A stretch of DNA of 64,000 nt from Candidatus Curtissbacteria bacterium (GCA_030647775.1 JAUSJC010000010.1:433334-497333), one strand, 5' to 3'. Counted from the stretch's first letter, positions 8,692 to 53,383 are shown. Program-made: numbers and translations. The notes: generated from the sequence alone by a model not told the origin.

Positions 8692-9804
8692 ATGTCCTAT
8701 CAACCCAAAGTAGCATTAGTACATGATGATTTCGTCCAGCAAGGCGGAGCGGAAAATCTGTTTGCCGAGATCGCCCAAATCTATCCAAATGCCCCAATTT
8801 ATACATCACTGGTCGATTGGAATAAACCGCCTATGGGAATAGACCGAAATAGGGTCCGACCCTCTTTTATGCAGAGAATCCCCTTTGCCGCAAAATTTTA
8901 TAAATTACTTTTGTCTCTCTACCCTTTGGCATTTGAAAGTTTCAATCTTTCCGCCTTTGACGTGGTTATTTCATCAACCACCCGTTTTGCCAAAGGCGTT
9001 GTAACCCCGCCAGATACGATCCATATTTGTTACCTAAACTCCATTCCCAGGTTTCTTTGGCATACCGACCATAAGAAAAGTTATTTGCCGTCCTCTCTCG
9101 AATCTATTTTTCGGCCCATCATAAATTGGCTAAAGCGCTGGGATATGGCTGCTGCTTCACGGGTAGATTTTTTTATTGCCAACTCCCAAAATGTTAAAAC
9201 CCAAATCAAAAAAGTCTATAACCGAAATTCCCAAGTTATCTATCCATTTGCCGATACAGATTTTTTTAAGCCCCCCAAAATTCATAACTGGAGACTGAAG
9301 AGTCAAAAATATTATCTTATTGTTTCGCGCCTGGTTCGCTGGAAGAAAATCGAAATCGCCATTCGTGCCGCCAATAATTTAGGAATCAACCTTTTTGTTA
9401 TTGGTGAAGGGCCGGACAGGAGTCGACTGAAGCACTTTGCGGGGAAGAGCACTAAATTTATAGGCAAAATTTCAAAAGAGGAGCTGCGTCAACTCTATCA
9501 AAACGCCCAAGCGCTAATTGTTACCCAAGAAGAAGATTTTGGTATAGTAACTGTTGAGGCTCAAGCATGTGGCCTTCCTGTTATTGCTTATGACCATGGC
9601 GGCCAAAAAGAAATTATCAAAAATGGCCTTACTGGTTTATTTTTCCCCTCGCAAAGCACCAAGGCTCTGGAAGATGCAATTAATGCGTCAAGTGCGGTAA
9701 AATGGAATTTAGCCGAAATTGTAAAGAACGGTCAAAGGTTCTCAAAGAAACAGTTTGTCAAAAATTTAAAAGCGAAAGTAAAAGAGTATGCCAGCCAAAA
9801 ATAA
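8692..9804 (+). CDS. GT4-family glycosyltransferase
   Basis: KVALVHDDFVQQGGAE N-terminus and the EEDFGIVTVEAQACGLPVIAYDHGG (E-x7-E) motif; start moved to 8692 to avoid overlapping the integrase. Confidence 0.8.
   Translation: MSYQPKVALVHDDFVQQGGAENLFAEIAQIYPNAPIYTSLVDWNKPPMGIDRNRVRPSFMQRIPFAAKFYKLLLSLYPLAFESFNLSAFDVVISSTTRFAKGVVTPPDTIHICYLNSIPRFLWHTDHKKSYLPSSLESIFRPIINWLKRWDMAAASRVDFFIANSQNVKTQIKKVYNRNSQVIYPFADTDFFKPPKIHNWRLKSQKYYLIVSRLVRWKKIEIAIRAANNLGINLFVIGEGPDRSRLKHFAGKSTKFIGKISKEELRQLYQNAQALIVTQEEDFGIVTVEAQACGLPVIAYDHGGQKEIIKNGLTGLFFPSQSTKALEDAINASSAVKWNLAEIVKNGQRFSKKQFVKNLKAKVKEYASQK
8850..8863. repeat. copy of the 15-bp REP-like quasi-palindrome TAGGGTC[C/G]GACCCT(A), in frame inside the GT4 gene (encodes NRVRPS)
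   Basis: exact core GGGTCCGACCC. Confidence 0.7.
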
Positions 9805-10900
9805 TCAGCGAGATTTAAAAATCGTCCTTTTCTGTGGAGGCTCCGGGACGCGCATGTGGCCGGCCAGCCGCAAAGAAAAACCCAAGCAATTCCAACCCCT
9901 GGTGGGCGATACTTCGATGTTCCAGCAGGCAATGGCCCGCATCAAAAAGGGTTTTCCCATAAGAGACGTTTTCGTTATCACCGGCAGGCAATATGTCGGC
10001 CTTGTTGTTCAGCAGGAACCGGATCTGCCCTTAGAAAACGTCATTATCGAACCGGAAATGAGGGATACCCTAGCCGCCGTCGGTTTTGCCGCCGCAGTCC
10101 TGGATAAAAAATTTGATAACCCTATCGTTGCTTCCCTTTGGGCAGCCGACCACTTGGTCAAAAATGATGACCAGTTTATTAAATCCTTAAAAGCCGCTTA
10201 TGAATATGTTAAAGATACCGGCAAAATGGTCTCAATTGACGTCAAACCGACATACCCCAATATCCATGTTGGCTACATCCAGATCGGTAAAATGATTAAA
10301 AAAGTTAACGGTCATGCTTTCTTTGAATACGTAAAACAAATCGAAAAACCGGATCTGGCAACCGCCAAAAAATACGCTGCCTCGTGGGAATACCTCTGGC
10401 ACGCCGGTTACAAAGTCTGGCATACCCAGAAAATGCTTTCTCAGTTTAAAAAATTTACACCCAAAGTTGCCAGCGGACTTGAGACTATCCAAAAATCATG
10501 GGGGAGCGATAACCAGGATGAAGTTGTCAGGCGTGTTTATCCGGATTTTGAAAAGCAATCAATCGATTATGCAATTTTTGAAAAGATGGATCCGGATGAC
10601 CTCGTCGTTTTACCGGCCGATATTGGTTGGTCTGATATCGGTGCCTGGAATATTCTAAAAGAAGAGCTTGCCCAAAACCAGACGGATAATGTTGTTTCCG
10701 GTGACGTTATTGATTTTGATTGTGAAGACTGTTTAATTTACAACAAAAGCGAAAATAAAATTGTGGCCACAATCGGTCTCAAGGGTTTAATCGTCGTCGA
10801 TACCCCGGATGGCCTCTTGGTCTGTGATAAAGATAAAATTTCCCAAGTCAAAAAAGTCATAGAGAAAATCAAAGAGACAAAGCAAGATAAATTTCTCTAA
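9788..10900 (+). CDS. manC: mannose-1-phosphate guanylyltransferase-like sugar nucleotidyltransferase
   Basis: KIVLFCGGSGTRMWPASRKEKPKQFQPL matches the ManC/GMPP N-terminal signature. Confidence 0.75.
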   Translation: MPAKNNQRDLKIVLFCGGSGTRMWPASRKEKPKQFQPLVGDTSMFQQAMARIKKGFPIRDVFVITGRQYVGLVVQQEPDLPLENVIIEPEMRDTLAAVGFAAAVLDKKFDNPIVASLWAADHLVKNDDQFIKSLKAAYEYVKDTGKMVSIDVKPTYPNIHVGYIQIGKMIKKVNGHAFFEYVKQIEKPDLATAKKYAASWEYLWHAGYKVWHTQKMLSQFKKFTPKVASGLETIQKSWGSDNQDEVVRRVYPDFEKQSIDYAIFEKMDPDDLVVLPADIGWSDIGAWNILKEELAQNQTDNVVSGDVIDFDCEDCLIYNKSENKIVATIGLKGLIVVDTPDGLLVCDKDKISQVKKVIEKIKETKQDKFL

Positions 10901-10909
10901 AACCCCAAA

Positions 10910-11560
10910 GTGCTATACGATTTATTAAAACGCACGATCGATATTATTGGCAGCCTCATAATTTTGGCCGTCTTTTCTCCTGTTATCTTAATTACTGCCG
11001 TTTTAATTAAGATTAGTTCCCCCGGGCCGGCCATTTATACCCCCCTGCGTGTCGGCAGGGACGGCAATCTTTTCAAGATGCTTAAGTTCCGCAGTATGTA
11101 CATGTATAAAATTAACGGCAAATTTGTGCATGCTAAAAAATACCTTGAGAAAAATCCCAAACTTATGCGCGAGTACCGGGAAAATAGTTTTAAGCTTGCT
11201 CACGACCCGCGGGTTACGCAGATTGGCAAATTCATTCGTAAGTTTTCCATCGATGAACTGCCGCAGCTTATTAATGTCGCCAAAGGCGATATGTCGCTTG
11301 TCGGCCCTCGGGCTTACCAGGAGGATGAGCTTACCCATCAGCAAAGGGTCTATCCGCATACCAAAAAATATGTAAAAGTTATTTTAGAAGCAAGGCCCGG
11401 CGCATCCGGCCCCTGGCAGGTTTCCGGCCGTTCTTTTATTAATTTTGATAAAAGGGTCATAATGGATGCTAAGTATGTCGAGAGGAGATCAATCTTATAT
11501 GATCTTTGGATCATGATGAAAACTCCAATTGCCATGATTACCGGCAGAGGAGCGGTATGA
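10910..11560 (+). CDS. polyprenyl-phosphate sugar phosphotransferase (bacterial sugar transferase, WbaP/EpsL-like)
   Basis: LKFRSM ... DELPQLINVAKGDMSLVGPR motif; N-terminal TM helix. Confidence 0.8.
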   Translation: MLYDLLKRTIDIIGSLIILAVFSPVILITAVLIKISSPGPAIYTPLRVGRDGNLFKMLKFRSMYMYKINGKFVHAKKYLEKNPKLMREYRENSFKLAHDPRVTQIGKFIRKFSIDELPQLINVAKGDMSLVGPRAYQEDELTHQQRVYPHTKKYVKVILEARPGASGPWQVSGRSFINFDKRVIMDAKYVERRSILYDLWIMMKTPIAMITGRGAV

Positions 11561-13371
11561 GAAAAAGAATCATCTTCATTTTAATAGCAATCGTTATCAT
11601 ATACGTCATCTTTGGCGTTCTTACGGCTCTTTCCATCAAAAAGGCAATTGGTACTATAAACAGTGCGTCCTCCGCTATCAAAGTCCAGGATTTGGATAAG
11701 GCAAAAGCAGATCTAAAGACCGCTAAAGGGGAGTTCCAAACCTCCCAGAAGATAATGGTAGTTTTTGCCCCAATTCGTGTTATTCCGCTTCTTGGCTGGT
11801 ATGTTGCCGATGCCCAGAGGGGCGTCGCGGCCGCCGTTTCCGGGCTTGATGCCGCCTCAACCGCGGCCGACGCAATTACTCCTTACGCTGATGTCCTTGG
11901 CTTAAAAGGTAAAGGTACTTTCTTAGGCGGTACTGCCCAAGAAAGGTTAGCAAAAGCAATCGAAGCACTTTCCAAAGTTGGCCCCCAGCTTGACGAGGTC
12001 GGTGCAAGTCTTGCTTCAACCAGGAAAGATGTCGACCAAATAGAGTCTTGGCGCTATCCAAATTTTTTGCCCGGCAGTCCGGGCGCCAAAATCGACAATA
12101 TTAAAAAAGCCGTCGACCAATTTGAATCACTAATCGTTGATTCGCGCCCCCTGCTTTTGGTTCTTCCCCAAATCATGGGTCAGGACAAAGAGCGAAAGTA
12201 TCTCGTCCTTTTCCAAAACGACAAAGAGCTTCGCCCCACCGGCGGGTTTATTACCGCTTACGCTGTTTTTCGGGTCAACAAGGGTGTTATTTCCTCAGAG
12301 GGATCCGATGATATTTACCGTCTGGACAGTACGCTCTTGAAAAAGGTCTCGGCACCCGCTCCAATGGTTAAGTATTTAAATGTTTCAAACCTTAACATGC
12401 GGGATTCCAATTTTTCACCTGATTACCTTGCCTCAATGAAAACCTTTGAAGACCTTTATCAGTCTTCATCCGGCAAAAAAGATATTGATGGCATCATCTC
12501 TTTAGATACCCAATTTGTTCTTTCGATGATGCAAGTTTTAGGCCCTGTCGATGCTTACGGCACCAAGTTTACCATTGATAAAGTTGATGCCTGCTCCTGT
12601 CCGCAGATAATTTATGAACTCGAAAGATACGCCGATCAAATCGTCGCTTATGAAAAAGGTTCCCGAAAAGATATTATCGGCGTTTTAATGCAAAGCCTGA
12701 TGGCCAAAGCTTTCAATGCGCCAAAAGGCCAGTGGCCAAGCCTCCTTGAGGCAATCGTCAATGACCTTCGCCAAAAACATTTGCTTCTCTATTTCCATGA
12801 TCCCCCAAGCCAGGCCGCCGCTGAAAAAATTAATTTCGCCGGCAGAATTTACAACTACGACGGTGATTATTTGCACATTAACGAAGCCAATCTTGGAGGC
12901 GCCAAATCCAACCTTTATGTTCAGGAGAAAGTGAGCCAGGTTGTTAAAAAGGCCAAAGACGGCAATTTGGATAAAACGGTTACGATTAGTTACAAATATC
13001 CGAAGGAAATGGATAATTGCAATTTGGAGCGTAAAACCGGCCTTTGTCTTGCCGGAATCTACCAGGATTATATAAGAATTTATGTTCCCAAGGGATCAAA
13101 GCTGATTAAATCCTCCGGAGCCGAAGTTGCCTTCACAGCCTCCGAAGACCTGGATAAAACGGTATTTGAAGCTTTCTTTACGGTCCGCCCTCAGGGCACG
13201 GCCAAAATCGAGCTCGAATACTCTGTTCCTATCAAAGTTACAAACCAGTACAAGCTCCTAATCCAAAAACAGCCGGGCACGGAAGGCATCATGTACGATA
13301 TCGATGCCCTCGGCCACCGCCAAAAAGCTTTCCCGCTCACAAACGACAAGGAATTGATCGTTAAGCTTTAA
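11557..13371 (+). CDS. DUF4012 domain membrane protein (cell-envelope polysaccharide associated)
   Basis: LVLFQNDKELRPTGGFITAYAVFRV is the DUF4012 hallmark; N-terminal TM; ATGA overlap with the previous gene. Confidence 0.7.
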   Translation: MRKRIIFILIAIVIIYVIFGVLTALSIKKAIGTINSASSAIKVQDLDKAKADLKTAKGEFQTSQKIMVVFAPIRVIPLLGWYVADAQRGVAAAVSGLDAASTAADAITPYADVLGLKGKGTFLGGTAQERLAKAIEALSKVGPQLDEVGASLASTRKDVDQIESWRYPNFLPGSPGAKIDNIKKAVDQFESLIVDSRPLLLVLPQIMGQDKERKYLVLFQNDKELRPTGGFITAYAVFRVNKGVISSEGSDDIYRLDSTLLKKVSAPAPMVKYLNVSNLNMRDSNFSPDYLASMKTFEDLYQSSSGKKDIDGIISLDTQFVLSMMQVLGPVDAYGTKFTIDKVDACSCPQIIYELERYADQIVAYEKGSRKDIIGVLMQSLMAKAFNAPKGQWPSLLEAIVNDLRQKHLLLYFHDPPSQAAAEKINFAGRIYNYDGDYLHINEANLGGAKSNLYVQEKVSQVVKKAKDGNLDKTVTISYKYPKEMDNCNLERKTGLCLAGIYQDYIRIYVPKGSKLIKSSGAEVAFTASEDLDKTVFEAFFTVRPQGTAKIELEYSVPIKVTNQYKLLIQKQPGTEGIMYDIDALGHRQKAFPLTNDKELIVKL

Positions 13372-13399
13372 AGTGGGAAAACCTCAACGTGAAGAGACA

Positions 13400-14215
13400 A
13401 TGAAATCCCCAAATCACGCTTGGCTTTTCGATGTCGATGGCGTCATAACTCACCCGGAGAAAAAGCAAGTTGTACGCAAGGGAATTTTTACCGAGATTAT
13501 CAAGCGTTTAAAATTAGGAGAACCCGTGGCGCTCGTCACTGGACGGGCGCTTTCTTGGGTCATGGAGCGCGTCGTTAATCCGCTTTCAAGCGAGATCGAT
13601 GACAAAACTGTTCTTGATAGACTTTTTGTATCAGGCGAGTTTGGCGCGTCGCGAATTCAATGGAAGAATGGAAAACCATTTCACGGTATAGATTCTTCAA
13701 TTTCTCTTCCAAAGAAACTTGCAGAAGAAGCACGCAAAGCTGCGGAAGCCTATAAAGATACTCAACACATCGACCCTGATAAAGAGACAATGGTCTCAAT
13801 TGAAATGAACGATGGGCTAACAGTTGATGAATTCAGACGTAATCAATTGCCTTTGGCAAAAAGACTGAATGAAATTCTCGCAAGCCAAAATGCAGAGCGA
13901 AAATTTGAAGTTCATGTTGACAGAATTGCGACCAACGTCAGGCATAAAGCTATAAATAAACACTATGCCGCACAACAAGTAATTCGCTGGCTTTCAAAAA
14001 TAGGGCTTTCGCCTAAGCAATTTTTTGCGTTTGGCGATAGCGCCGGAGACCGTGAAATGGCAGATGAGTTACACCGAGAAGGGAAAGCGGTAACATTTGT
14101 CTTTGTAGGACATAAAGAAGAGCTAGGTTCAAAAGGGAAAGGGTATAAAACAGTTATTACAGAAGAACAATGTGATGACGGAACAGTAGAATTTCTTAAA
14201 AGTAAAGAGAGCTAA
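13400..14215 (+). CDS. HAD-superfamily hydrolase
   Basis: motif I WLFDVDGVIT close to the N-terminus; FGDSAGD motif III/IV; an alternative GTG start at 13373. Confidence 0.7.
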   Translation: MKSPNHAWLFDVDGVITHPEKKQVVRKGIFTEIIKRLKLGEPVALVTGRALSWVMERVVNPLSSEIDDKTVLDRLFVSGEFGASRIQWKNGKPFHGIDSSISLPKKLAEEARKAAEAYKDTQHIDPDKETMVSIEMNDGLTVDEFRRNQLPLAKRLNEILASQNAERKFEVHVDRIATNVRHKAINKHYAAQQVIRWLSKIGLSPKQFFAFGDSAGDREMADELHREGKAVTFVFVGHKEELGSKGKGYKTVITEEQCDDGTVEFLKSKES

Positions 14216-14751
14216 GCCTTCTTATTACTGGTTGATTTAAGATATTCTTTAATGTCACTGCGAAAAAATTTAGCATACTTTTTCGGGGAAAAGGAAATCT
14301 TCCTTAAAAGAGTTTCCCATTCTACCCATTCGGGTTTTTCTTCCGACTCTCTATTAGTAAAGGATTCACCGTCAAGAATAATTTCAAAGAGATAAGCAAT
14401 TTCGTGGTTATTAGGCAAGTCATTATTAAAGAAAGACAAAAGTCTCTTAATCTTAATGCCGTCAGGCAATGATCGGCCGCCAAACAGCTCTTCTTGCAAT
14501 TCACGCATGATCGCCTCATCCGGCGTCTCATCGGAGAGGATGTGACCAGCAACCGAGGCTTCATACAAACTCGCTCCTTGTACGGCGTTTTTGCTTCTTT
14601 TTTGTACCAAAACCCTTGTCTTTTGTTCGTCACTAAAGACTAATGCATGAGCGCATTGATGGAGAAGCCCTTTTGTATGGCATTGCGTCCAAGTAGCGGT
14701 ACCGATTTTATTGCCCTTTTTATCTACAACGTCGTATATTTCGTCAGCCAT
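14212..14751 (-). CDS. NUDIX hydrolase
   Basis: Nudix box GHILSDETPDEAIMRELQEELFG. Confidence 0.8.
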   Translation of the reverse strand: MADEIYDVVDKKGNKIGTATWTQCHTKGLLHQCAHALVFSDEQKTRVLVQKRSKNAVQGASLYEASVAGHILSDETPDEAIMRELQEELFGGRSLPDGIKIKRLLSFFNNDLPNNHEIAYLFEIILDGESFTNRESEEKPEWVEWETLLRKISFSPKKYAKFFRSDIKEYLKSTSNKKA

Positions 14752-14764
14752 TTAAAAGTTAGTA

Positions 14765-15535: not shown

Positions 15536-15612
15536 ATTGATATTCTACAGTAGTGCTTGTACTAGTTCCACCCATACTTGATCCAAGCTCCCGGATACGA
15601 CATACTTAATAT

Positions 15613-16239: not shown

Positions 16240-16243
16240 TTGG

Positions 16244-17092: not shown

Positions 17093-17198
17093 TCATTTCA
17101 AATATTCTTCGAGCGCAGCGAGAAGTCCTAAATTTCTTATATAATAGTTCTCGATAAGAGCGCTTGTTTTTTGAAGACTCAAAATAAACTCGAACAAT

Positions 17199-18518: not shown

Positions 18519-18570
18519 CAATAAATTCCAAAAGAAGTCATACTGAAAGTAATCCGCCTGTTTCATCGAT

Positions 18571-24376: not shown

Positions 24377-25570
24377 ATGTGGCAAAGAATTAAAAACTAT
24401 TACCACCTAGCCCAAGCTTTTTTAGCAGCAGTCATTTTTAATTTTCCCTCAAATAAAATTAAGGTAATCGGCGTTACGGGAACAGACGGCAAGACAACGA
24501 CCGTCCATATGATTTATGAAATTATAAAAGCATCGGGGCAAAAAGTATCCATGATTTCCTCGGTGGGAGCCGCCATTGGATCTAAAGCTTTCGATACAGG
24601 TTTCCATGTTACAACTCCATCAAGCTGGCAGGTTCAAAAATATCTAAGAAAAGCGGCCGACAGCGGACATAAGTATTTCGTCCTGGAAACCACTTCCCAC
24701 GGCCTTGATCAAAACCGCCTGGCCTATGTGCACTTCGAAATTGGAGTCCTGACCAATATCACTCACGACCACCTTGATTACCACGGTACTTGGGAGAACT
24801 ATGCCGCCTCCAAAGCAAAACTTTTCAAAAACGTTGCTTATTCAATTTTGAATTACGATGACCATAAATCATTCTCTTTTCTCCAAAATAAAGCAGCAGG
24901 TCAAGTTATTCCCTATGGAATCAAAAGTGGTGCCGATATCAATACAAAAAATTTTCCGCTTAAGCTCAAAATTAAAGGGGACTACAATTTAGAAAATGCC
25001 TTAGCATCGGCCGCCGCAACCAAAGCGCTAGGTGTTTCAAAGCAAAAAATCGTGAGAGCCCTCGCCAAGTTTTCAAAGGTTCCGGGTAGGATGGAAGAAA
25101 TAAACCTTGGTCAGGGCTTTAACGTTATTGTTGATTTTGCCCATACCCCAAATGCCCTGTCCCAAGCCCTCAGAACCCTAAAACCCAAAAGGCCGGGCCG
25201 TCTCATGGCCGTTTTTGGAGCAGCGGGAGAGAGGGATAAACTCAAAAGGCCGATTATGGGCAGAGTTGCCGATGAGAATGCCGATATCATTATCCTGACT
25301 GCCGAAGATCCAAGAAACGAAAAGGTTTTAGATATCGCCAGCCAGATTAAAAAGGGTATTAAAAATAAAACCGAAGGCAAAAGTCTTTTTGTAATTGAGG
25401 ACAGGGAAAAAGCTATCGGGTATGCCATAAATCTGGCTGCCAAAAATGATATTGTCGGAATTTTTGGCAAGGGTCACGAGAAGAGTATGTGTTTCGGCAA
25501 GAAGGAATCGCCTTGGGACGAATTCCATGTTACTGCAACCGCTATTAGAAGGAGGGTAAATGGCAAGTAA
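24377..25570 (+). CDS. murE: Mur ligase, MurE-like (UDP-MurNAc-L-Ala-D-Glu:diamino acid ligase), lacks the N-terminal domain
   Basis: VIGVTGTDGKTTT P-loop; DYHGTWENYAASKAKLF; the position after ftsI is the conserved murE slot. Confidence 0.75.
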   Translation: MWQRIKNYYHLAQAFLAAVIFNFPSNKIKVIGVTGTDGKTTTVHMIYEIIKASGQKVSMISSVGAAIGSKAFDTGFHVTTPSSWQVQKYLRKAADSGHKYFVLETTSHGLDQNRLAYVHFEIGVLTNITHDHLDYHGTWENYAASKAKLFKNVAYSILNYDDHKSFSFLQNKAAGQVIPYGIKSGADINTKNFPLKLKIKGDYNLENALASAAATKALGVSKQKIVRALAKFSKVPGRMEEINLGQGFNVIVDFAHTPNALSQALRTLKPKRPGRLMAVFGAAGERDKLKRPIMGRVADENADIIILTAEDPRNEKVLDIASQIKKGIKNKTEGKSLFVIEDREKAIGYAINLAAKNDIVGIFGKGHEKSMCFGKKESPWDEFHVTATAIRRRVNGK

Positions 25571-27554
25571 AAATAATTTCGCGGCAGTGGTGCTTGCGGC
25601 GGGTGTCGGCAAAAGGATGAAGTCCAAGACCTCAAAAGTTTTGCACGAAGTCGCCGGCAAACCAATAATTACACGCACCGTGGGGATCGTTGCATCCCTA
25701 AACCCCAGCCAAATAGTTATCGTTGCCAGTTCGCAAAATGCTAAAGACGTAAAAAGAATATTAAACGAAAAACCGGCCATCGCAATTCAAAAAGAGGCCC
25801 TAGGTACTGCTGATGCGACGAAGGCGGGATTGACAAAAATTAAAGAAGGCATAAAAGATATTGCGGTTCTCTATGGTGATGACACCGCCTTTTACAAGCC
25901 GCAGACTATCCTAAACGTCTTTGCGCTTCACCGAAAAACTTCTGCAAAAATTACTTTCGTCACTTTAGAAAAAGAAAATCCGTCTGGTCTTGGCAGAATC
26001 GTCAGAGAGAATGGTAAGCTTATCGGCATTGTCGAGGAAAAGGACGCGACAAAAAAAGAAAGGCAAATCAAAGAAATAAATGACGGTTTATATTTTTTCA
26101 GCAAAGACTGGCTTTTACAAAATCTTTCCAAACTTTTACCCTCTCCAGTAACAGGAGAATATTACTTGACCGATCTTATCAAAATTGCCCTTTCCCAAAA
26201 TCAAAAGGTCGAAACCTATAAATTAAAAGATCCCGGCCAGTGGCACGGAATAAATACCCCCGAAGAGTTGGAAGAAGCCAACAGCAAACTCAAAAACAAA
26301 ATCCATATTATGGGAATCGTCGGTGCCGGTGCAGCGGCCGTTGCCGGAATTGCCAAAGCATACGGTTTTAAAGTTTCTGGATGCGATATTTCGCCGCAGT
26401 CGGCTTACTCAAAAGGGTTAGGTATTAAGGTCCAAAAAGGCCATGACTCCGGCCATTTGAAAGCAGCCGACATGCTTATAATCTCTCCGGCCGTCTTAAA
26501 ACTAGATCCCAAAAACCGGGAGGTGGCAAAAGCAAAAAGTTTAAAAATCCCCGTTTCAACATGGCAGGAATTTCAGGGGGAATATTTACAAGAAGGTAAA
26601 TTTGTTATTGCCGTGGCGGGAGCTTATGGGAAATCAACGACAACCGCCATGGTTTCTCAAATATTAATCGATGCTGGTCTCGACCCGACATGTGAAGTTG
26701 GTGCAAAAGTCCTTTCATGGGATAAAAACTTTAGAGTCGGCAAGTCAAAATACTTCGTCTGCGAGGCGGACGAATACAATAATAACTTTTTAAATTACTC
26801 GCCGGATATTGCCGTCATCTTAAATATCGTCTGGGAGCATCCGGACTTTTTCAAGTCCGAAAAGGATATCACCGCATCGTATCAAAAATTTATTGATAAT
26901 ATCAAACCCGGCGGCACCCTAATCACAGGGTCCGACCCTCTGATACTTAAGCACAGAAAAAACGTCAAAACAGAGAAAATAGGGTCCGACCCTAACATTA
27001 CTAACATTAAACTTTCAATAATCGGTAATTTCCGAAAAGAAAACGCCGCCGCCGCGCTTTCCGTCGCCAAAGCGCTAAACCTTGATCTCCAAAAAGCCAA
27101 AAAATCGATAGAAAATTTCAAAGGCTTGGGGCGCCGTTTGGAGTTAAAAGGGGAGATAGACGGCGTCAAATTTTACGATGATTATGCCGTTCAGCCTTAT
27201 ACGGTCAAAACTACCGCGGACGCGTTAAAAGAAGAATTTAAAGATAAAAAAGTTTTGCTCGTTTTTGAACCACATACTTTTTCTCGCATCGAAACTTTTT
27301 TTGGCGATTTTGTCTCTGCGCTTAAAAAATCAAATGTCGATAAAATCTATATAACAGAAGTTTTTACGGCTAGGGAAAAAGGCAACAAAAAAACACTCGC
27401 TAAAAAACTGGCTAAAAAGGTAGGGAAAAAGGCAAAATTTACCGGATCGCTTGCCCAAACAGCGCAAGAAGTTAAAGATAATCTCGGGAAGTTTGAGATT
27501 GTCCTCTCGATGGGCGCCGGCGATATTTATAAGTTATACGATTTTTTTAAATAA
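25560..27554 (+). CDS. murC: fusion protein: N-terminal GlmU-like sugar-1-phosphate nucleotidyltransferase domain (no LbH acetyltransferase domain) plus C-terminal UDP-N-acetylmuramate--L-alanine ligase MurC
   Basis: N-terminus VVLAAGVGKRMKSKTSKVLHEVAGKPII ... LGTADA ... YGDD (GlmU pyrophosphorylase motifs); C-terminus IMGIVGAGAAAVAGIAKAYGFKVSGCDIS and VIAVAGAYGKSTTT (MurC). Confidence 0.75.
   Translation: MASKNNFAAVVLAAGVGKRMKSKTSKVLHEVAGKPIITRTVGIVASLNPSQIVIVASSQNAKDVKRILNEKPAIAIQKEALGTADATKAGLTKIKEGIKDIAVLYGDDTAFYKPQTILNVFALHRKTSAKITFVTLEKENPSGLGRIVRENGKLIGIVEEKDATKKERQIKEINDGLYFFSKDWLLQNLSKLLPSPVTGEYYLTDLIKIALSQNQKVETYKLKDPGQWHGINTPEELEEANSKLKNKIHIMGIVGAGAAAVAGIAKAYGFKVSGCDISPQSAYSKGLGIKVQKGHDSGHLKAADMLIISPAVLKLDPKNREVAKAKSLKIPVSTWQEFQGEYLQEGKFVIAVAGAYGKSTTTAMVSQILIDAGLDPTCEVGAKVLSWDKNFRVGKSKYFVCEADEYNNNFLNYSPDIAVILNIVWEHPDFFKSEKDITASYQKFIDNIKPGGTLITGSDPLILKHRKNVKTEKIGSDPNITNIKLSIIGNFRKENAAAALSVAKALNLDLQKAKKSIENFKGLGRRLELKGEIDGVKFYDDYAVQPYTVKTTADALKEEFKDKKVLLVFEPHTFSRIETFFGDFVSALKKSNVDKIYITEVFTAREKGNKKTLAKKLAKKVGKKAKFTGSLAQTAQEVKDNLGKFEIVLSMGAGDIYKLYDFFK
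26926..26994. repeat. two copies of the REP-like 15-mer 54 bp apart, in frame inside the MurC fusion gene (each encodes GSDP)
   Basis: cores at 26928-26938 and 26982-26992. Confidence 0.75.
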
Positions 27555-40698: not shown

Positions 40699-41016
40699 CT
40701 CTATATTTTAATCCTGAGCGAAGTCGAAGGACCTCCTCCCTTAACACAAACTGTCATCCTGAACTCGATTGCAAATTTATGAGTAATAAGCTCTCTTATT
40801 CAGGATCTGGTGTTGGTTCAGGATCTTTTTTAGATTCCGGATCAGGTCCGGAATGACGATGAGGTGCGGGTTGCAAACAGCCTCAGATTATGTTGTTTAG
40901 GGAGTGCTATTGAAACAACGATTTCAATAGCTTTCGTACTAACATCCGGACGAAGTCGGAATAAATTCGCGCACGATAATTACTTCCTCGGTGACTGTTG
41001 CAAATAGGGTTGTATT
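40699..41016. repeat. ftsA-ftsZ intergenic region (318 bp) composed largely of fragments of the palindromic element family (ATCCTGAGCGAAGTCGAAGGAC; GTCATCCTGAACTCGATT; TTCAGGATC x2; CCGGATCAGGTCCGG; TCCGGACGAAGTCGGA; hairpin CTATTGAAA...TTTCAATAG)
   Basis: motifs read directly; the same motifs recur at 42140, 45459, 52532, 53388, 55070 and 58939. Confidence 0.65.
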
Positions 41017-42139: not shown

Positions 42140-42166
42140 ATCATCATCCTGAACTCGATTCAGGAT
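42140..42166. repeat. hairpin element CATCATCCTGAACTCGATTCAGGATC directly after the ftsZ stop
   Basis: 8-bp stem ATCCTGAA/TTCAGGAT; same family as 40753-40770. Confidence 0.65.
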
Positions 42167-42235
42167 CTATTCAAATATAACTGTAGTATAATAAATCCGT
42201 AATGAAAGATTGCAAAGTAGTATAATATTCGTATT

Positions 42236-42472: not shown

Positions 42473-42481
42473 AAGTACTAA

Positions 42482-44840: not shown

Positions 44841-44918
44841 TAGCCATTATTGGCGCGTCACAATTATATGTCAATAAGTACTTTACCAAACCCGCCACGG
44901 ATAAGGTAAAATCATCTA

Positions 44919-45455
44919 ATGATTGTCGCCCTTGGCTCCAAAAACCCCGCCAAAATTGGGGCGGCAAAAATCGCTTTCGAAAAAGTTTTTTCTAAGGAAA
45001 AAATAAAAATTGTCGGCGTGGAAGTTAAATCGGGCATTTCCAGCCAGCCCATGTCAGACAGGCAGTCAATCCGCGGGGCTATTAACCGCGCAAAACAAGC
45101 ACTCAAATCAATCAAAGGCGCGGATTTTGGGGTTGGTATGGAGGGTGGTATCCACAAAATCGGCAAAAAGTGGTTTGAATCCGGCTGGATCGCCGTTGTC
45201 GATAAAACCGGCAAAATCGGCCTTGGCACTTCCGCCCGCTGGGAAATGTCGGCTAAAGTCATGGGCAAATTGGAAGGAAAAGGCGAACTGAGCCATGTCT
45301 TTGAAGATTTGGCCAAAATCGAAAACGCCAAAGATGTCGGTGGGGTCATGGGCCTTGTCACCAAAAATATCCTGCCGAGGGATCTGGCTTATTCCCACGG
45401 CGTCATCTTCGCCCTCGCTCCATTTTTCTCCGACCCGGTTTTCTGGGATGAGTAA
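44919..45455 (+). CDS. non-canonical purine NTP phosphatase (YjjX/ITPase-like, DUF84)
   Basis: IVALGSKNPAKIGAAK ... GVGMEGG ... similar to YjjX inosine/xanthosine triphosphatase. Confidence 0.65.
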   Translation: MIVALGSKNPAKIGAAKIAFEKVFSKEKIKIVGVEVKSGISSQPMSDRQSIRGAINRAKQALKSIKGADFGVGMEGGIHKIGKKWFESGWIAVVDKTGKIGLGTSARWEMSAKVMGKLEGKGELSHVFEDLAKIENAKDVGGVMGLVTKNILPRDLAYSHGVIFALAPFFSDPVFWDE

Positions 45456-45458
45456 AAT

Positions 45459-45507
45459 TGTCATCCCGAACTTGTTTCGGGATCTAAATCCTCTAAATCG
45501 GGATTTA
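45459..45507. repeat. two adjacent hairpins (GTCATCCCGAA-cttgt-TTCGGGATC; TAAATCC-tctaaatcg-GGATTTA) between convergent yjjX-like and GIY-YIG genes; the first supplies the last codons and stop of the GIY-YIG gene
   Basis: palindromes read directly. Confidence 0.65.
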
Positions 45508-46367: not shown

Positions 46368-46432
46368 TAATAATCTTTTCTCGCGTGCGTTACAATATAA
46401 GTTAGCTTGTTTCTCACAAGCTCGAAATAGGG

Positions 46433-47725: not shown

Positions 47726-47732
47726 AGTAAAA

Positions 47733-47747
47733 TAGGGTCCGACCCTA
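47733..47747. repeat. REP-like 15-mer TAGGGTCCGACCCTA immediately upstream of the RAYT gene (overlaps its ATG)
   Basis: perfect quasi-palindrome with a C centre. Confidence 0.8.
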
Positions 47748-47904
47748 TGCCGGCTAAAAATTCTATTAAACAATTCGTAGAAAACGGAATCTATCACCTT
47801 TACAACAGGGGAGTGGAGAAACGGAATATATTCCTTGACGAGCAAGATTATTCGGTTTTTCTTGGTTACATCAAGCAGTACCTAGATGACACAGAGCCTG
47901 ATAC

Positions 47905-47919
47905 AGGGTCGGACCCTAA
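47905..47919. repeat. REP-like 15-mer (G-centre orientation) inside the RAYT gene, in frame (TGSDP)
   Basis: CAGGGTCGGACCCTA. Confidence 0.75.
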
Positions 47920-48173
47920 ATCATTAGCAGGTGAGATAGATCTTCTGGCCTTTTGTCTTATGCCGAACCATTTTCATTTTCTGGTTAAACAGACCACAAA
48001 AGATGGTATCACTAAGTTTATAAGGGCAGTGTGCACAAATTACGTCATGTATTTCAATAAGAAATACGACAGGGTCGGCACTTTATTTCAAGGCAAATAT
48101 AAAGGGCTTTTAATCGATAACGATGTTTATCTTTTGCATCTTTCTCGCTATATTCACCTCAACCCTCTTAAAA

Positions 48174-48188
48174 TAGGGTCCGACCCTA
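48174..48188. repeat. REP-like 15-mer (C-centre) inside the RAYT gene, in frame (IGSDP)
   Basis: TAGGGTCCGACCCTA. Confidence 0.75.
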
Positions 48189-48407
48189 AACAAAGCTATT
48201 CTAGTTACAGTTATTACCTCGGCAGAAAGCAGGCTAAATGGTTAAAGCCTGATACGGTCCTTGACTTTTTTAGAACAGCCAGCAAAACTAGCTTAACAGA
48301 TTATTTATCCTACGAAAGCTTTGTAGATGATTATGTTGAAGAGCCCGGAACGGTCATCGAGGATCTGACTCTTGAAGACGAGAGCGAAGATTAGGATAAA
48401 TTAGTAA

Positions 48408-48423
48408 ATTAGGGTCGGACCCT
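48408..48423. repeat. REP-like 15-mer (G-centre, inverted relative to the upstream copy) just downstream of the RAYT gene
   Basis: TTAGGGTCGGACCCTT. Confidence 0.8.
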
Positions 48424-48432
48424 TGGATTTGA

Positions 48433-48738
48433 ATGATTTTAATTCTCACAACCTTTCCCAATAAAACCGAAGCGGTAAAAATCGGCGAGGCGATTTTAGA
48501 CGAAAAACTGGCTGTTTGCTGGAATCTATTTCCGGTGGATTCAAATTATCGCTGGAAAGGCAAAATAGTAAAAGATAAAGAACTTTTGATGATCATTAAA
48601 ACCAAAGACGAAAACTTTGAGAAGATCGAAGATTTTATAAAAAAGAATCATTCCTACGAAGTTCCGGAGATTATATCCGTAAAAGCAAATAAAATAAACG
48701 CTTCTTATTTAGCTTGGGTCAATCAAGAAACTTCATGA
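48433..48738 (+). CDS. cutA: divalent-cation tolerance protein CutA
   Basis: ILTTFPNKTEAVKIGEAILDEKLAVCWN ... YEVPEI CutA1 signature. Confidence 0.8.
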   Translation: MILILTTFPNKTEAVKIGEAILDEKLAVCWNLFPVDSNYRWKGKIVKDKELLMIIKTKDENFEKIEDFIKKNHSYEVPEIISVKANKINASYLAWVNQETS

Positions 48739-49346
48739 GACTAATCGATCTGTCAGTACCGATCAACGAAGATACTCCGATTTATCCGGGAGATCCGAAA
48801 ACAGAGATTAAGCCAAATGGAGTTATGGATACAGATGGTTACGAGGACCATTTTGTTTGTGTCGGTACTCATGTGGGGACTCACGTTGATGCTCCTCGGC
48901 ACATGATTAAGGACGGCAAATCATTAGATCAAATAACACCTGATAACTTTGCGGGGAGAGGAATTGTCATTGACGTTAGAAATGGCTTTAGCCTCGAAAA
49001 GGTTAAAGCAGCTGATATAAAAGAGGGGGACATAGTGCTTTTCTACACCGGTATGAGCCATCGCTACCACCAGTCAGCTTATTATGATGCCTATCCGGCG
49101 ATTACGGAAGAAATTGCCGGATACCTAGTCGAGAAAAAAATAAAAATGGTCGGTGTCGATATGTGTAGCGTTGACCATGAGCCGTTTAAAGTCCACAAAA
49201 TTTTTCTAAAAGAGCAAATTCTCATAATCGAAAATCTCACCAACCTTGAAGCATTGATTGGCAGAGAATTTAAAATCTATGCTTTTCCGATAAAACTGCA
49301 AATCGACGGAGCACCGGCAAGGGTTATCGCAGAAATTTTAGGTTGA
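48735..49346 (+). CDS. cyclase-family protein (kynurenine formamidase-like)
   Basis: HVGTHVDAPRH metal-binding motif. Confidence 0.8.
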   Translation: MRLIDLSVPINEDTPIYPGDPKTEIKPNGVMDTDGYEDHFVCVGTHVGTHVDAPRHMIKDGKSLDQITPDNFAGRGIVIDVRNGFSLEKVKAADIKEGDIVLFYTGMSHRYHQSAYYDAYPAITEEIAGYLVEKKIKMVGVDMCSVDHEPFKVHKIFLKEQILIIENLTNLEALIGREFKIYAFPIKLQIDGAPARVIAEILG

Positions 49347-49715
49347 TTTCCTCTTAATTTCATTAATCCTCTTGTCGGAAATCCCGAAATGATGGGCAAT
49401 TTCATGCTCAACGGTGTCGATAATCAGCTTACGGATTTTCTCCTCATCTCCTCTTGCCAAAAATTCAATCGGTCCTCGAAAAATAGTGATTTTGTCAGGA
49501 ATCTGTAACCCTTGCCATCTTCCCCAAACCGTTTTTGGAATTCCGTGATAAAGCCCTAAAAGCAGGAGTCCTCTAGCAACTCTGCTGTTTGGCCACTCCT
49601 CGACCACGATACTTACATTATCCATTGCCGCCTTAAATTCTTCAGGCAAATCTTCGATAGCTTCATCAACCAGCTTTTCGAACTTGCTAATTTCCATCAA
49701 CTCAAATTTTACCAT
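49338..49715 (-). CDS. zincin-like metallopeptidase family protein (DUF1025-like)
   Basis: HEIAHHFG (HExxH) motif; N-terminus FEKLVDEAIEDLPEEF typical of the family; start moved to the internal Met (the ORF track gives 49838). Confidence 0.6.
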   Translation of the reverse strand: MVKFELMEISKFEKLVDEAIEDLPEEFKAAMDNVSIVVEEWPNSRVARGLLLLGLYHGIPKTVWGRWQGLQIPDKITIFRGPIEFLARGDEEKIRKLIIDTVEHEIAHHFGISDKRINEIKRKST

Positions 49716-49736
49716 TCTGCTAGAATTATTCCTGTC

Positions 49737-50420
49737 ATGTATAGAGAAGAAAGAAGGTTTAAAAATAGCAGAAGCCTGACACTTGCCGCCATTTACGAAG
49801 GCAAAAACAAAAACGCCCCGGTAGTTATCATGTGTCATGGCTATAGCAGTAGCAAAACAAGACCCTCTACAAGAACTTTAGCCAAAAGATTAACCAATGC
49901 AGGGCTGAGTGTTTATCGTTTCGATTTTACAGGCAATGGAAAGTCAGAAGGGAATTTAAAAAACCTTACACCAATTGTGGGTCTAGATGATTTAAAAAGC
50001 GCAATTAAAGATTTGGGCAGAAAAGATTTTGCCCTTTTTGGCTCCAGTTTCGGTGGCTATGTAGCATTGTTATACGCATTAGAAAACCCCATTATGGCAC
50101 TGGCACTGCGCGCGCCGGTTTCTAGCTACCCAGCCGTTTATGAGCCGAAATATAAAGAAGAAATGAAGAAAATTGTAAAAGAGGTAGCGGCAATAGATAT
50201 TTATAAGGAAGCAAAGAATATTAAATGCCCCGTACAAATTACCCATGGCGACGCCGACGATGTAGTACCAATTGCTCAAAGCAAAAAACTCCTCGAATCT
50301 TTATCAGGCATTAAACAGCTGGAGATCATTAAAGGGTCTAGGCATGCTCCAAAAGGAAAGTATTTGTCTAAATCAAATAGAGTTTTAGCCCAATTTCTTA
50401 CACAAACTCTGTTGAAGTAA
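49737..50420 (+). CDS. alpha/beta hydrolase (dienelactone hydrolase-like)
   Basis: GSSFGG nucleophile elbow; HGDADD; VIMCHGYSSS. Confidence 0.7.
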   Translation: MYREERRFKNSRSLTLAAIYEGKNKNAPVVIMCHGYSSSKTRPSTRTLAKRLTNAGLSVYRFDFTGNGKSEGNLKNLTPIVGLDDLKSAIKDLGRKDFALFGSSFGGYVALLYALENPIMALALRAPVSSYPAVYEPKYKEEMKKIVKEVAAIDIYKEAKNIKCPVQITHGDADDVVPIAQSKKLLESLSGIKQLEIIKGSRHAPKGKYLSKSNRVLAQFLTQTLLK

Positions 50421-50449
50421 GCATTTCCATCTGACATAATTAGCTTCAT

Positions 50450-53383
50450 ATGGCAAAACAGCAAAAATTTAAGCCCGTTGACCCAAAACAGGATTTTGTG
50501 GCGATGGAGAAAAAGCTTTTGGACTACTGGTACAAAGAGGGGATAGTCGAAAAATATCTCAAGAAAAACCGAAGTTCCAAAAAGAAATTCTCATTCCTCG
50601 ACGGCCCGATAACCGCCAACAACCCAATGGGCATCCACCACGCATGGGGAAGGACTTACAAGGATCTTTGGCAGCGTTTTTACAATATGCAGGGTTACGC
50701 CGGCCGTTTCCAAAACGGTTTTGACGAGCAAGGTCTTTGGGTCGAAGTCGAAGTCGAAAAAGAGCTGGGTTTTAAAAATAAAAAAGATATCGAAAAATTT
50801 GGAATCGACAAGTTCGTTAATCTTTGCAAAGAACGTGTCAAAAAATTCTCGCGCGTTCAAACCGAGCAAAGCAAACGCTTGGGTTACTTTATGGACTGGG
50901 AAAATTCCTATCACACCTCTTCTGACGAAAATAACTATGCCATCTGGAATTTCCTGAAAGTTTGTAATCAAAAAGGATATTTATATAAAGGCCGCGATTC
51001 CGTGCCCTGGTGCCCCCGTTGCGGCACGGCCATTTCCCAGCACGAAATCTTAACAGAAGAATACAAAGAAATAACCCACGATTCGATCTACTTCAAACTA
51101 CCTCTTATCGACCAGCCACACAAGTATCTTCTAGTATGGACAACCACACCCTGGACCATTCCCGGGAATGTTGCTGTAACCGTCGACCCTAAAGAAACCT
51201 ATACCGAATATCCCATTAGCAGTAACGAATATGTTTTAGTAATGAAAAAGGCCGTTGAGAGGCTAATAAAAGAAAAAGTATTAGAAAGAACTACCGCAAT
51301 AATAACGGATGAGGTTCTGGGGGCATCACTCCTCGACAAAAAATATATTGCCCCATTTGACGATTTTGAAGGAGTAAAGAAATCTCTAGATGGTTACGTA
51401 CATAAAGTCGTAGCAAGTGATGAGCAAATATTACCTATCTCGTCAGAAGAGGGAACAGGGATTATTCACCTTGCTCCGGGCGCAGGGGCAGAAGATTTTG
51501 CTATTTCAAAAAAAGAGAACTTACCAGTAGTCGAGCTAATCGATGAAGAAGCGAATTACCTTTCCGGCTTAGGCAAATTTTCTGGCCAAAGTGCTAAAGA
51601 CCATCCGGAATTAATCACGTCTTATTTAAAAGAAAAAGACAAGGGAAACTTTTTGCTCACAGTCCAACCTTACACTCATCGTTACCCGACTTGCTGGCGC
51701 TGCAAAACAGAACTGGTTTGGCGAGTCGTCGATGAATGGTATATCGCCATGGACCGTAAAGATCCCGATGACAAGAAGGGTCGGACCCTACGCCAGGAAA
51801 TGGTCGATGTCGCCAAAAAGATCACGTGGATTCCAAAGTTTGGCTTGGGAAGAGAGCTCGACTGGCTTAAAAATATGCACGACTGGCTGATTTCCAAAGA
51901 AAGATACTGGGGGTTGGCGCTGCCAATTTGGGAATGCACCAAGTGCGGCAGCTTTGAAGTCATTGGATCAAAAGAAGAACTAAAAGAGAGAGCTGTAGCC
52001 GGCTGGGACGGGTTTGAGGGGCAGTCTCCCCACAGGCCTCAAATTGACGAAATAAAAATAAAATGTTCCAAGTGCGCTGAAACAGTGACCAGAATTAAAG
52101 CGGTCGGCAATGTTTGGCTGGATGCCGGCATCGTGCCTTTTTCTACCATGTCCCAAGACTGGTTTCCGGCGGATTTCATTACCGAATCTTTTCCCGGCCA
52201 GTTTAAAAACTGGTTTTATAGCTTAATTGCCATGTCCACGGTTTTGAAAAATGAAAATTCTTTTAAAACCGTTTTAGGCTTCGCCACACTACTGGACGAA
52301 AAAGGCGAGGAGATGCACAAGTCGAAAGGTAACGCCATCGAATTCAACGAAGCCGCCGACAAAATCGGCGTCGACGTCATGCGTTGGATGTACGCAAAGC
52401 AAAACCCCGTTAATAATCTTTTATTTGGTTATCATGTTGCAGATGAAGTCCGAAGACGCTTTTATTTAATTCTTTGGAATGTTTATTCATTTTTCGTAAC
52501 CTACGCCAATCTAAACGACTTTTCTCTTCCCCGTCATTCTGGGGAGCGAAGCGACTCCAGAATCGATTCTGGACAAGTCCTTCGACTTCGCTCAGGACCT
52601 CAGGACCGTGAGTTTACCGAATCGGCCAGAGTGACAAAGAATGCCCTCGATAACTGGATAATCTCCCGACTAAACTCAACTATAAAAATGGTTACCGATT
52701 CGCTTACCAAATACGATGCTCAAATTGCCTCTACCGCCATTGAAGATTTTGTCATCGGCGATCTTTCTACCTGGTACATAAGAAGAAGCAGGGACAGGGT
52801 AGAGGAGGCGCTGCCTACGATCTACGATATTCTAGTCACGCTCTCAAAATTACTTTCACCATTCACGCCCTTTATCGCCGAAGAAATATATATGAATTTG
52901 GTAGAGGAGCAGTCCGTAAACCTTGCCGACTTCCCTACTTCCAACGCAAAACTCATTGATAAAAATCTCGAAGACCAAATGGCAATTGCACGGACTATTG
53001 TTGAAAAAGCCCATTCGGCAAGAAAAGAAGCCGGCATCAAAGTCCGCCAGCCGCTTGCATCTCTAACTTACGGTGAAGAAAAACTTCCCGAGCAAATCGA
53101 GAAAATAATCGCTGACGAAGTTAATGTTAAAGAAGTAATTACCAAAAAGGGATCAAAAATTACTCTCGATACTAAATTCACTCCGGCGCTAGTTGCAGAG
53201 GGTCAAGCCCGCGAGATAATCCGCAGTATCCAGCAGGCCAGAAAAGATGCCGGCTGTGATCTTGCCGAAAAAGTTACGGTGACACTCCCCGATTGGCCCA
53301 AGGAATTTGAGGAAGAAATTAAAAAGCAAACATTAACGTCGAAACTTGTTAAAGGCAAGAAGCTTGAAATCATTAGGTCTTAA
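50450..53383 (+). CDS. ileS: isoleucine--tRNA ligase (type 2-like) with a degenerate HIGH region and an in-frame repeat-derived insertion
   Basis: GFDEQGLWVEVEVEKELGF (compare IleRS GWDCHGLPIE), DWLISKERYWGLALPIWEC, KMSKS as HKSKGN; about 30-aa Ser/Arg-rich insertion at 52532-52610. Confidence 0.8.
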   Translation: MAKQQKFKPVDPKQDFVAMEKKLLDYWYKEGIVEKYLKKNRSSKKKFSFLDGPITANNPMGIHHAWGRTYKDLWQRFYNMQGYAGRFQNGFDEQGLWVEVEVEKELGFKNKKDIEKFGIDKFVNLCKERVKKFSRVQTEQSKRLGYFMDWENSYHTSSDENNYAIWNFLKVCNQKGYLYKGRDSVPWCPRCGTAISQHEILTEEYKEITHDSIYFKLPLIDQPHKYLLVWTTTPWTIPGNVAVTVDPKETYTEYPISSNEYVLVMKKAVERLIKEKVLERTTAIITDEVLGASLLDKKYIAPFDDFEGVKKSLDGYVHKVVASDEQILPISSEEGTGIIHLAPGAGAEDFAISKKENLPVVELIDEEANYLSGLGKFSGQSAKDHPELITSYLKEKDKGNFLLTVQPYTHRYPTCWRCKTELVWRVVDEWYIAMDRKDPDDKKGRTLRQEMVDVAKKITWIPKFGLGRELDWLKNMHDWLISKERYWGLALPIWECTKCGSFEVIGSKEELKERAVAGWDGFEGQSPHRPQIDEIKIKCSKCAETVTRIKAVGNVWLDAGIVPFSTMSQDWFPADFITESFPGQFKNWFYSLIAMSTVLKNENSFKTVLGFATLLDEKGEEMHKSKGNAIEFNEAADKIGVDVMRWMYAKQNPVNNLLFGYHVADEVRRRFYLILWNVYSFFVTYANLNDFSLPRHSGERSDSRIDSGQVLRLRSGPQDREFTESARVTKNALDNWIISRLNSTIKMVTDSLTKYDAQIASTAIEDFVIGDLSTWYIRRSRDRVEEALPTIYDILVTLSKLLSPFTPFIAEEIYMNLVEEQSVNLADFPTSNAKLIDKNLEDQMAIARTIVEKAHSARKEAGIKVRQPLASLTYGEEKLPEQIEKIIADEVNVKEVITKKGSKITLDTKFTPALVAEGQAREIIRSIQQARKDAGCDLAEKVTVTLPDWPKEFEEEIKKQTLTSKLVKGKKLEIIRS
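51777..51790. repeat. REP-like 15-mer inside ileS, in frame (KKGRTLRQ)
   Basis: AGGGTCGGACCCTA. Confidence 0.7.
52532..52610. repeat. palindromic element (GTCATTCTGGGGAGCGAAGCGACTCCAGAATCGATTCTGGACAAGTCCTTCGACTTCGCTCAGGACCTCAGGACC) inserted in frame in ileS
   Basis: shares the core CCTTCGACTTCGCTCAGGA with intergenic copies; encodes RHSGERSDSRIDSGQVLRLRSGPQDRE. Confidence 0.7.

Follow-up and report, generated by a model that had tools for sequence, protein, structure and literature searches.

REP/RAYT systems, or REPtrons, combine repetitive extragenic palindromes (REPs) with a REP-associated tyrosine transposase (RAYT), and the described cases include E. coli TnpA_REP/RayT with its REP-containing bacterial interspersed mosaic elements (REP-BIMEs) and the REPIN-RAYT pairs of Pseudomonas. 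Here we describe a short palindrome and a RAYT-like HUH nuclease of the Y1 class in 64,000 nucleotides from a Candidatus Curtissbacteria bacterium (GCA_030647775.1 JAUSJC010000010.1:433334-497333), a member of the Microgenomates in the Candidate Phyla Radiation (CPR). This whole stretch is called the window, its genome is denoted W, and L numbers denote the related loci that were compared with it. The locus is most likely an undescribed variant of a REP/RAYT-type system. We consider it rather probable that the palindrome is the REP cognate to a RAYT-like HUH-Y1 nuclease that is inherited vertically, in a low-copy system whose genic sites are maintained at the DNA level within pre-existing codons. 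As in REPtrons, one Y1 HUH gene is bracketed by its own palindromes, enzyme and palindrome co-evolve, synteny is kept, inheritance looks vertical and the structural counterpart is 4er8. Unlike most REPs, which are 20–40 nt long and usually imperfect, the window palindrome is perfect, spans 13–15 nt and has no GTAG (or CGTC) tag. REPs and REPINs occur in tens to hundreds of copies and are mainly extragenic, whereas the window motif is very low in copy number and mostly intragenic. Finally, the window RAYT open reading frame (ORF) contains two in-frame copies, whereas in E. coli K-12 rayT none of the 47 10-mers common to the flanks is found inside the gene.

Other known elements share single features with this locus. 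IS200/IS605 elements also have a Y1 HUH enzyme, hairpins at both ends, a unit of ~690 bp and precise presence/absence polymorphism, and the hairpin adjoining the start codon in the window recalls the sequestered ribosome-binding site of IS200. Unlike these elements, the RAYT cassette is apparently single-copy with conserved synteny, has the same palindrome at both ends and a junction within the palindrome, and is accompanied by dispersed solo 13-mers. The HUH replication initiators gene A of phiX174 and repC of pT181 carry the origin within their own gene, and a cognate site in the own coding sequence favours action in cis. The present gene differs from them in being chromosomal, in having two internal and two flanking sites, and in showing no evidence of rolling-circle replication. 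HIP1 of cyanobacteria and the DNA uptake sequences (USS/DUS) are short exact motifs that spread by substitution, in coding and non-coding DNA, where the peptide is tolerated. They number hundreds to thousands per genome and have no tie to a flanked transposase, whereas the window motif is rare and co-varies with the RAYT. Lastly, the Rickettsia palindromic elements (RPEs) and the intragenic REPs described in several species, tRNA synthetase genes included (Di Nocera et al., 2013; PMC3733652), resemble the window copies in that palindromes are translated in frame in functional genes, among them those of aminoacyl-tRNA synthetases. These elements are insertions that add residues, whereas three of the four window copies outside the RAYT gene add none and overwrite ancestral codons.

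The palindrome and the RAYT-like gene it brackets

By k-mer counting and pattern search, the 13-mer AGGGTCSGACCCT is the single outstanding short repeat of the window, with eight exact copies (Table 1). It has 6-nt arms around a centre base that is C or G, and is frequently lengthened to TAGGGTCSGACCCTA. With up to two mismatches allowed, the expectation is 0.64 sites, and all 100 shuffles stayed below eight. Copies with one or two mismatches are absent from the window, and allowing three mismatches adds only three sites, which is the chance level (7.9 expected). Thus, the family in the window is exact or absent, without decayed copies. Six of the eight copies are located in frame in long ORFs of a window with 42.7% GC, and are read as GSDP (four copies), RVRP (one) and GRTL (one). 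By Pfam, the host genes encode a GT4 glycosyltransferase, a GlmU-like NTP-transferase fused to MurC, a Y1 (IS200-like) transposase and a type-2 IleS. With either centre base, the 13-mer contains no stop codon in any frame of either strand, so an open frame is guaranteed wherever it replaces codons one for one. An earlier note on this DNA had described a REP-like motif that lies in frame inside coding sequences and keeps each ORF open. The motif does belong to the RAYT-type gene it flanks, and the six genic copies lie in real, conserved genes with the translations given there; the frames are indeed open, although this is partly automatic for a 13-mer free of stops.

The RAYT-like protein matches the Pfam family Y1_Tnp above its cut-off (E 2.5e-9), and its sequence places it on a distant, separate branch that appears only distantly RAYT-like. 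All 27 homologues have H77 and Y135, and HFH at residues 75-77 is invariant or nearly so. The best Foldseek match to its AlphaFold2 model (pLDDT 75) is 4er8_A, E. coli TnpA_REP with its REP, with a probability of 1.00, followed by the TnpA proteins of IS200/IS605. In this model the pLDDT falls below 50 at residues 53-55 and 140-145, the two internal loops of lowest confidence, and these are the sites of the internal copies I1 and I2, respectively. RAYTs without internal copies have I1 and I2 loops that are equally long or longer; thus, the palindrome was written into the loop and not added to it. Four further genomes of Curtiss- and Daviesbacteria (L005, L168, L169 and L170) carry GSDP-type RAYTs that are 70–77% identical to that of the window. 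In all five genomes the left copy adjoins the start codon, and the right copy either overlaps the stop codon or comes after it; in L170 this stop codon is the TAG of the extended palindrome. All ten internal sites of these genomes read A GGG TCS GAC CCT. An inspection of the 70 closest RAYT homologues showed both GSDP sites in almost all of them.

We then compared 80 loci, mostly from Patescibacteria, by a genome scan with alignment of RAYT homologues. In 73 of the 80 loci the same 10-mer is found on both flanks, and in 36 of these 73 it recurs within the RAYT ORF of the same locus. When palindromes are swapped between loci, the recurrence falls to 67 of 5162 combinations (1.3%). The internal matches are nearly all located at nt 150-250 or nt 417-521 of the ORF, and the sole two exceptions adjoin the stop codon. 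Each lineage has its own palindrome bracketing the RAYT, for example AGGTCCGACCT in L007, or ATTACAAAGGTCCGTCCTTTGTAAT, TTGACAGGGGTTACCCCTGTCAA and AAGGTCTCACCTT elsewhere, and these other palindromes take the same two internal positions while encoding other peptides (NKVGP/TRSDLV, NYKGRTFVR/NKGPSFVI, LTKGRTLSK and LTGVTPVS). On these sequence comparisons, the lineage-specific pairing, coding copies included, is the signature of co-evolving REPs and RAYTs. Of the 63 dispersed cognate clusters counted over all RAYT loci, 38 fall within long ORFs, which hold 84% of the bases; clusters within genes are therefore usual in genomes this compact, and only mildly disfavoured. In the RAYT/REP literature that we searched, which was not complete, we came across neither RAYT ORFs with internal REPs nor RAYTs from the CPR; this absence is not proof. 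In another CPR genome (L015, 4976-5026), a 717-aa ORF contains an inverted pair of the palindrome of that lineage (AGGTCCGTCC ... GGACGGACCT). The pair is translated in frame as RGPS...GTDL and looks like an in-frame insertion of the REPIN type.

The RAYT occurs once in the 64 kb window. Its neighbourhood is conserved: an MFS gene adjoins the RAYT in W and L170, and in L168 the RAYT lies directly upstream of ileS. This conserved synteny points to vertical inheritance. The cassette is also gained or lost precisely at the palindrome. L088 (4699-4816) is collinear with L168 (9948-10709) except that it lacks the RAYT gene together with one palindrome. The two collinear alignments overlap on the palindrome that is left, so that the junction lies inside it; this solo 13-mer of L088 is located 56 nt upstream of ileS. 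The polymorphism fits either a REP-by-REP deletion or the insertion of a cassette into a REP. On the same L088 contig, the GRTL site of IleS has drifted synonymously. Among 80 IleS loci, six hold a RAYT, and none of these is of the 13-mer type.

Table 1. Exact copies of the 13-mer and the RAYT-like gene in the window (positions counted from the first nucleotide of the window).
Feature	Position	Strand	Reading and context
Copy in GT4 glycosyltransferase gene	8851..8863		ORF 8530-9804; RVRP (RVRPS)
MurC copy 1	26927..26939		GSDP (TGSDP); at the universal MurC 'DDP' position
MurC copy 2	26981..26993		GSDP (IGSDP); 54 bp downstream of copy 1
Left flanking copy	47734..47746		Centre C; last base directly precedes the RAYT ATG
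RAYT-like HUH-Y1 gene	47747..48394	+	215 aa; HUH at PNHFHFL, catalytic Tyr in SRYIHLNP
Internal copy I1	47905..47917		Centre G; GSDP (aa 54-57; TGSDP); loop between helix 32-46 and the HUH strand
Internal copy I2	48175..48187		Centre C; GSDP (aa 144-147; IGSDP); straight after the catalytic-Tyr helix
Right flanking copy	48411..48423		Centre G; starts 16 nt past the RAYT stop
Copy in ileS	51777..51789		ileS 50450-53383; (K)GRTL

Copies in housekeeping genes

To place the remaining copies, we compared each host protein with its orthologues; by these alignments, the copies at three of the four sites outside the RAYT gene were written into ancestral codons by substitution. The GT4 protein in the database has 390 aa, starts at 8632 and is identical to the window over that length. 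The MurC fusion and the RAYT each have a database counterpart of full-length identity, and all three records bear the name Candidatus Curtissbacteria. Sixty GT4 orthologues (57–77% identical) show zero gaps across 60 residues around the site, where the family consensus is R-[VIL]-[RKH]-[PT]-S and RVRPS is common. Since the alignment is gap-free and RVRPS is common, this peptide is ancestral and not inserted. The orthologue in L087 (60% identical) carries the exact 13-mer on the same codons. In L085 and L086 the site reads AGA GTC CGA CCC T, a 12/13 match, and the RAYT of L085 is flanked by a different palindrome, CAAACCWGGTTTG. L085 also has two variant palindromes GGGGTCCGACCCC, 17 nt apart, at 1166-1191 within a GT2 ORF.

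The IleS peptide GRTL follows a clade-specific loop, and itself aligns with the core residues NTLF of IleS from T. thermophilus (1ile). Many IleS proteins of Microgenomates have the motif G[KR]T[LY]R, encoded by synonymous codons. Of ten relatives with (K/Q)GRTLR, three have the exact 13-mer (W, L090 and L140), one has a 12/13 match (L089) and the rest are synonymous variants; such variants, for example GGC CGA ACG CTT, are found in L088, L122, L108, L093 and L096. The loop that follows EWYIAMD (window ~51755-51790) varies from 0 to ~27 residues among Microgenomates (loci L088-L167), and often carries recurring K/S/Q-rich peptides such as KSKVKSQ, LKTQNSK and IQNSKF, possibly translated from other repeat families. 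Farther downstream, a second repeat family, GTCCTTCGACTTCGCTCAGGA with its partner arm, forms a true in-frame insertion of 35 residues in ileS (52529-52633, aa 694-728; peptide PRHSGERSDSRIDSGQVLRLRSGPQDREFTESARV). The insert is absent from all 22 of the nearest IleS relatives inspected. It is the RPE-like case that the earlier note had sought, but in a different repeat. Related copies of this second repeat are found at 40712-40732, intergenic after ftsA, and at ~58950-58975, encoding LRLRSG in the ORF 58175-59506.

The fusion gene (25560-27554) joins a GlmU-like N-terminal nucleotidyltransferase to MurC, an architecture kept in more than 100 orthologues from Curtissbacteria. At MurC copy 1, the aligned residues of H. 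influenzae MurC are ADDP, and xxDP is frequent at this position in orthologues. The two copies are separated by 54 bp (18 codons) from start to start, with a spacer of 41 bp (26940-26980). The 14-residue spacer peptide, LILKHRKNVKTEK, has KSRVKPGKDLKTM as its homologue in the closest motif-free orthologue; the 54-bp piece is therefore native MurC sequence and not an inserted cassette. Solved MurC structures have 44–50 residues where the window has ~20, and the end of the central domain is ~25–30 residues shorter in the window, so this region is reduced, not expanded. Copy 2 coincides with 2–3 additional residues relative to the closest relatives, and for about six in other lineages relative to the common form. 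The DNA of the closest relatives at this site, ATAAGTCCAACCC, resembles a decayed copy. In the AlphaFold2 model (pLDDT 89), the two copies form coil, one directly behind strand 453-456 and the other behind strand 470-473, where confidence in the ligase is lowest.

Doublets of exact 13-mers at this 54-bp distance are found in L001 (11380-11446), L171 (4467-4533), L172 (1441-1507) and the window (26927-26993). The fusion proteins of L001, L171 and L172 are ~57–61% identical to that of the window; their 41-nt spacers are unrelated and the centre bases vary (C,C; G,G; C,G). In other orthologues the peptides are degenerate (GPDP..GVSDP, GSVP..GTDP and GPDP..GLDS), and the distance of 18 codons is retained. 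Alignment to the landmark RKD[IV]K suggests that copy 2 of the window is not positionally homologous to copy 2 of these three loci. The doublet-bearing orthologues are scattered in a neighbour-joining tree, which is uninformative about the origin of the doublet. A 67-bp mobile doublet was considered and rejected, since the spacers are unrelated between species and homologous to native MurC. The earlier note had proposed that the genic copies are lineage-specific insertions, and that the MurC pair brackets exactly 54 bp as a tiny in-frame insertion. By the refuting condition that the note itself had set, this reading does not hold: the residues are ancestral in GT4, at MurC copy 1 and in IleS, and only MurC copy 2, with its 2–6 extra residues, is ambiguous. 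The 54-bp figure is correct from start to start; what the pair encloses is 41 bp of native sequence, and the homology of the spacer to a motif-free orthologue, together with the greater length of solved MurCs in this region, contradicts a mini-insertion. Its statement that such colonization of genes is rare outside Rickettsia was too strong, in view of the intragenic REPs in several species (PMC3733652).

Two further sets of repeats in the window concern other sequences. A third palindromic family (TCATCCTGAAC...GTTCAGGATGA) is located at 42144-42169, 45460-45489 and 53409-53438, just past the stop codons of ftsZ, the ORF 44919-45455 and ileS, respectively, and looks like shared hairpins of the terminator type. 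Segments of 105–140 nt that are 76–80% identical (2780-2919, 4103-4325 and 7686-7790) cover the starts of the minus-strand ORFs 2443-2964, 4173-4562 and 7625-8650, and are probably paralogous N-termini.

Origin and maintenance of the genic copies

A tiny mobile palindrome could have been inserted in frame, as RPEs are in Rickettsia, if the RAYT inserted units of 13–18 nt or the 67-bp doublet and only in-frame events in tolerant loops survived. We regard this as unlikely: the GT4 site is gap-free in 60 orthologues, MurC copy 1 occupies the universal DDP position, and GRTL of IleS falls on core residues of 1ile, with synonymous codons in relatives. The sequence between the MurC copies is native, and motif-free RAYTs have loops at least as long. 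In addition, 13 is not divisible by three, and the 13-mer does not carry any flanking sequence along with it. Insertion would nevertheless explain the added residues at MurC copy 2 (2–3 relative to the closest orthologues and about six in other lineages), and it finds parallels in the indel-rich RAYT loops I1 and I2 and in the true in-frame inserts of other repeat families, namely the 35-aa ileS insert and the L015 pair in its 717-aa ORF. Convergence at the protein level, by which chance and codon bias would have produced the 13-mer from the useful peptides GSDP, GRTL and RVRP, agrees with the conservation of these peptides in orthologues, but is scarcely credible. Relatives encode the same peptides by other codons (GGC CGA ACG CTT; AGA GTC), and these synonymous variants effectively refute a coincidence of codon bias. 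Conversely, identical codons are found at ten of ten RAYT sites and at eight MurC sites in genomes of ~40% GC, and far less than one exact 13-mer would be expected by chance in 64 kb.

The two remaining alternatives dispense with the RAYT. A HIP1-like iterated palindrome unrelated to the transposase, made by substitution through a mutation or repair bias (for example, one linked to a methyltransferase), would account for the substitution origin, for exact copies without near-matches and for a placement indifferent to coding status. It is very unlikely, however, given a density of ~1 per 8–16 kb at best, which is far too low, the clustering of four of the eight copies at the RAYT gene, the change of palindrome with RAYT lineage over 73 loci and the rarity of the 13-mer in related genomes (three copies in 1.06 Mb of IleS-centred loci). 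A site for a different protein that binds double-stranded DNA, acting as an operator, an uptake signal or an architectural element, would suit the perfect 6-1-6 palindrome, the conservation at the DNA level and the 54-bp spacing in four species, which is about five helical turns and could reflect a dimeric binder. This proposal leaves unexplained why each lineage has its own palindrome at the RAYT ends and loops and why the RAYT is gained and lost precisely there, and it comes with no candidate binder; we give it very little weight.

The reading of the 13-mer as the cognate REP of the RAYT-like nuclease is the one we favour, but several results weigh against it. The protein reaches only 40.4 bits for the NCBIfam equivalog REP_Tyr_transpos (NF047646), below the cut-off of 80, and a PDB sequence search at E <= 0.1 returned no match. 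The core of 13 nt is shorter than classical REPs, is flanked by (A/T)TAG at best and lacks a 5' GTAG tag. The motif is also rare and mostly intragenic: outside the RAYT locus there are four copies in 63 kb of the window, all within genes, and 0–1 per 20 kb in L005, L168, L169 and L170, and the scarcity in the IleS-centred loci mentioned above counts here as well. The four copies of the RAYT locus follow no orientation rule, which gives no support to a specific geometry of cleavage or excision. The binding or cleavage of the 13-nt hairpin by the RAYT is putative, and the folding of the hairpin is a computed potential. The link between loss of the cognate RAYT and decay of its sites consists of two anecdotes, L088 and L085. 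Finally, an ancient small insertion is possible at MurC copy 2, where the evidence is ambiguous, and the recurrence of the 54-bp spacing, with a second copy that appears to lie elsewhere in the window, is unexplained; a constraint on the spacing itself would be one possibility, a misleading alignment of this indel-rich stretch the other.

From the sequences compared, the copies in housekeeping genes are old, as the exact 13-mer is found in species of ~60% identity while the neighbouring DNA has diverged. At such divergence synonymous positions are saturated; therefore, identity of the 12 arm bases at several sites calls for purifying selection or continuing homogenization of the DNA. That this selection or homogenization is linked to the RAYT would follow from the cognate-REP reading. 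In context, the computed folding energy of the 13-mer is -3.2 to -5 kcal/mol, and a single-stranded 13-mer would form a mini-hairpin of 5–7 bp with a 3-nt loop, the kind of substrate used by Y1 enzymes. The genic copies would occupy loops in which the ancestral peptide (RVRP, GSDP or GRT) could already be encoded by the palindrome in one of its frames. A force acting on the DNA, either selection for RAYT recognition sites or RAYT-dependent homogenization, would then bring in and hold the exact 13-mer. Where the cognate RAYT is lost or its specificity changes, the sites would drift synonymously.

Possible self-recognition, and significance

The copies within the RAYT gene may have a role of their own. 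Our best guess is that I1 and I2, together with the flanking copies, would be cis sites for an enzyme that recognizes its own gene, for self-limitation, autoregulation or excision of the cassette. In this proposal, their nature as such cis-acting recognition sites would explain why I1 and I2 co-vary with the flanking palindrome from lineage to lineage. A more far-reaching version, which we put forward only tentatively and consider less probable than its opposite, extends this to a large, mostly CPR branch of RAYT-like proteins. There, in-frame copies of the own palindrome at two loops and at the flanks would form a self-recognition circuit for autoregulation or programmed excision, in which protein, gene and dispersed sites co-evolve. 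The same drive would write the palindrome into the codons of essential genes, giving a REP system that is propagated by substitution and does not transpose.

How REPs arise, spread and persist, and what RAYTs do for the cell, are open questions on which this system bears. The exact copies in existing codons show that substitution can give rise to a RAYT-associated palindrome and that the palindrome can persist in this way, remaining exact while nearby synonymous sites are saturated, and they point to selection or homogenization at the DNA level rather than to transposition. The dozens of lineages in which a palindrome lies beside and inside the gene of its enzyme provide a natural co-variation series, from which the RAYT-REP recognition code and any cis-regulatory logic might be read. 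As a minimal low-copy system in tiny CPR genomes, it has the further advantage that every site could be enumerated. Lastly, repeat-derived peptides such as GSDP in protein alignments call for caution, since they may reflect a constraint on the DNA and not the function of the protein.

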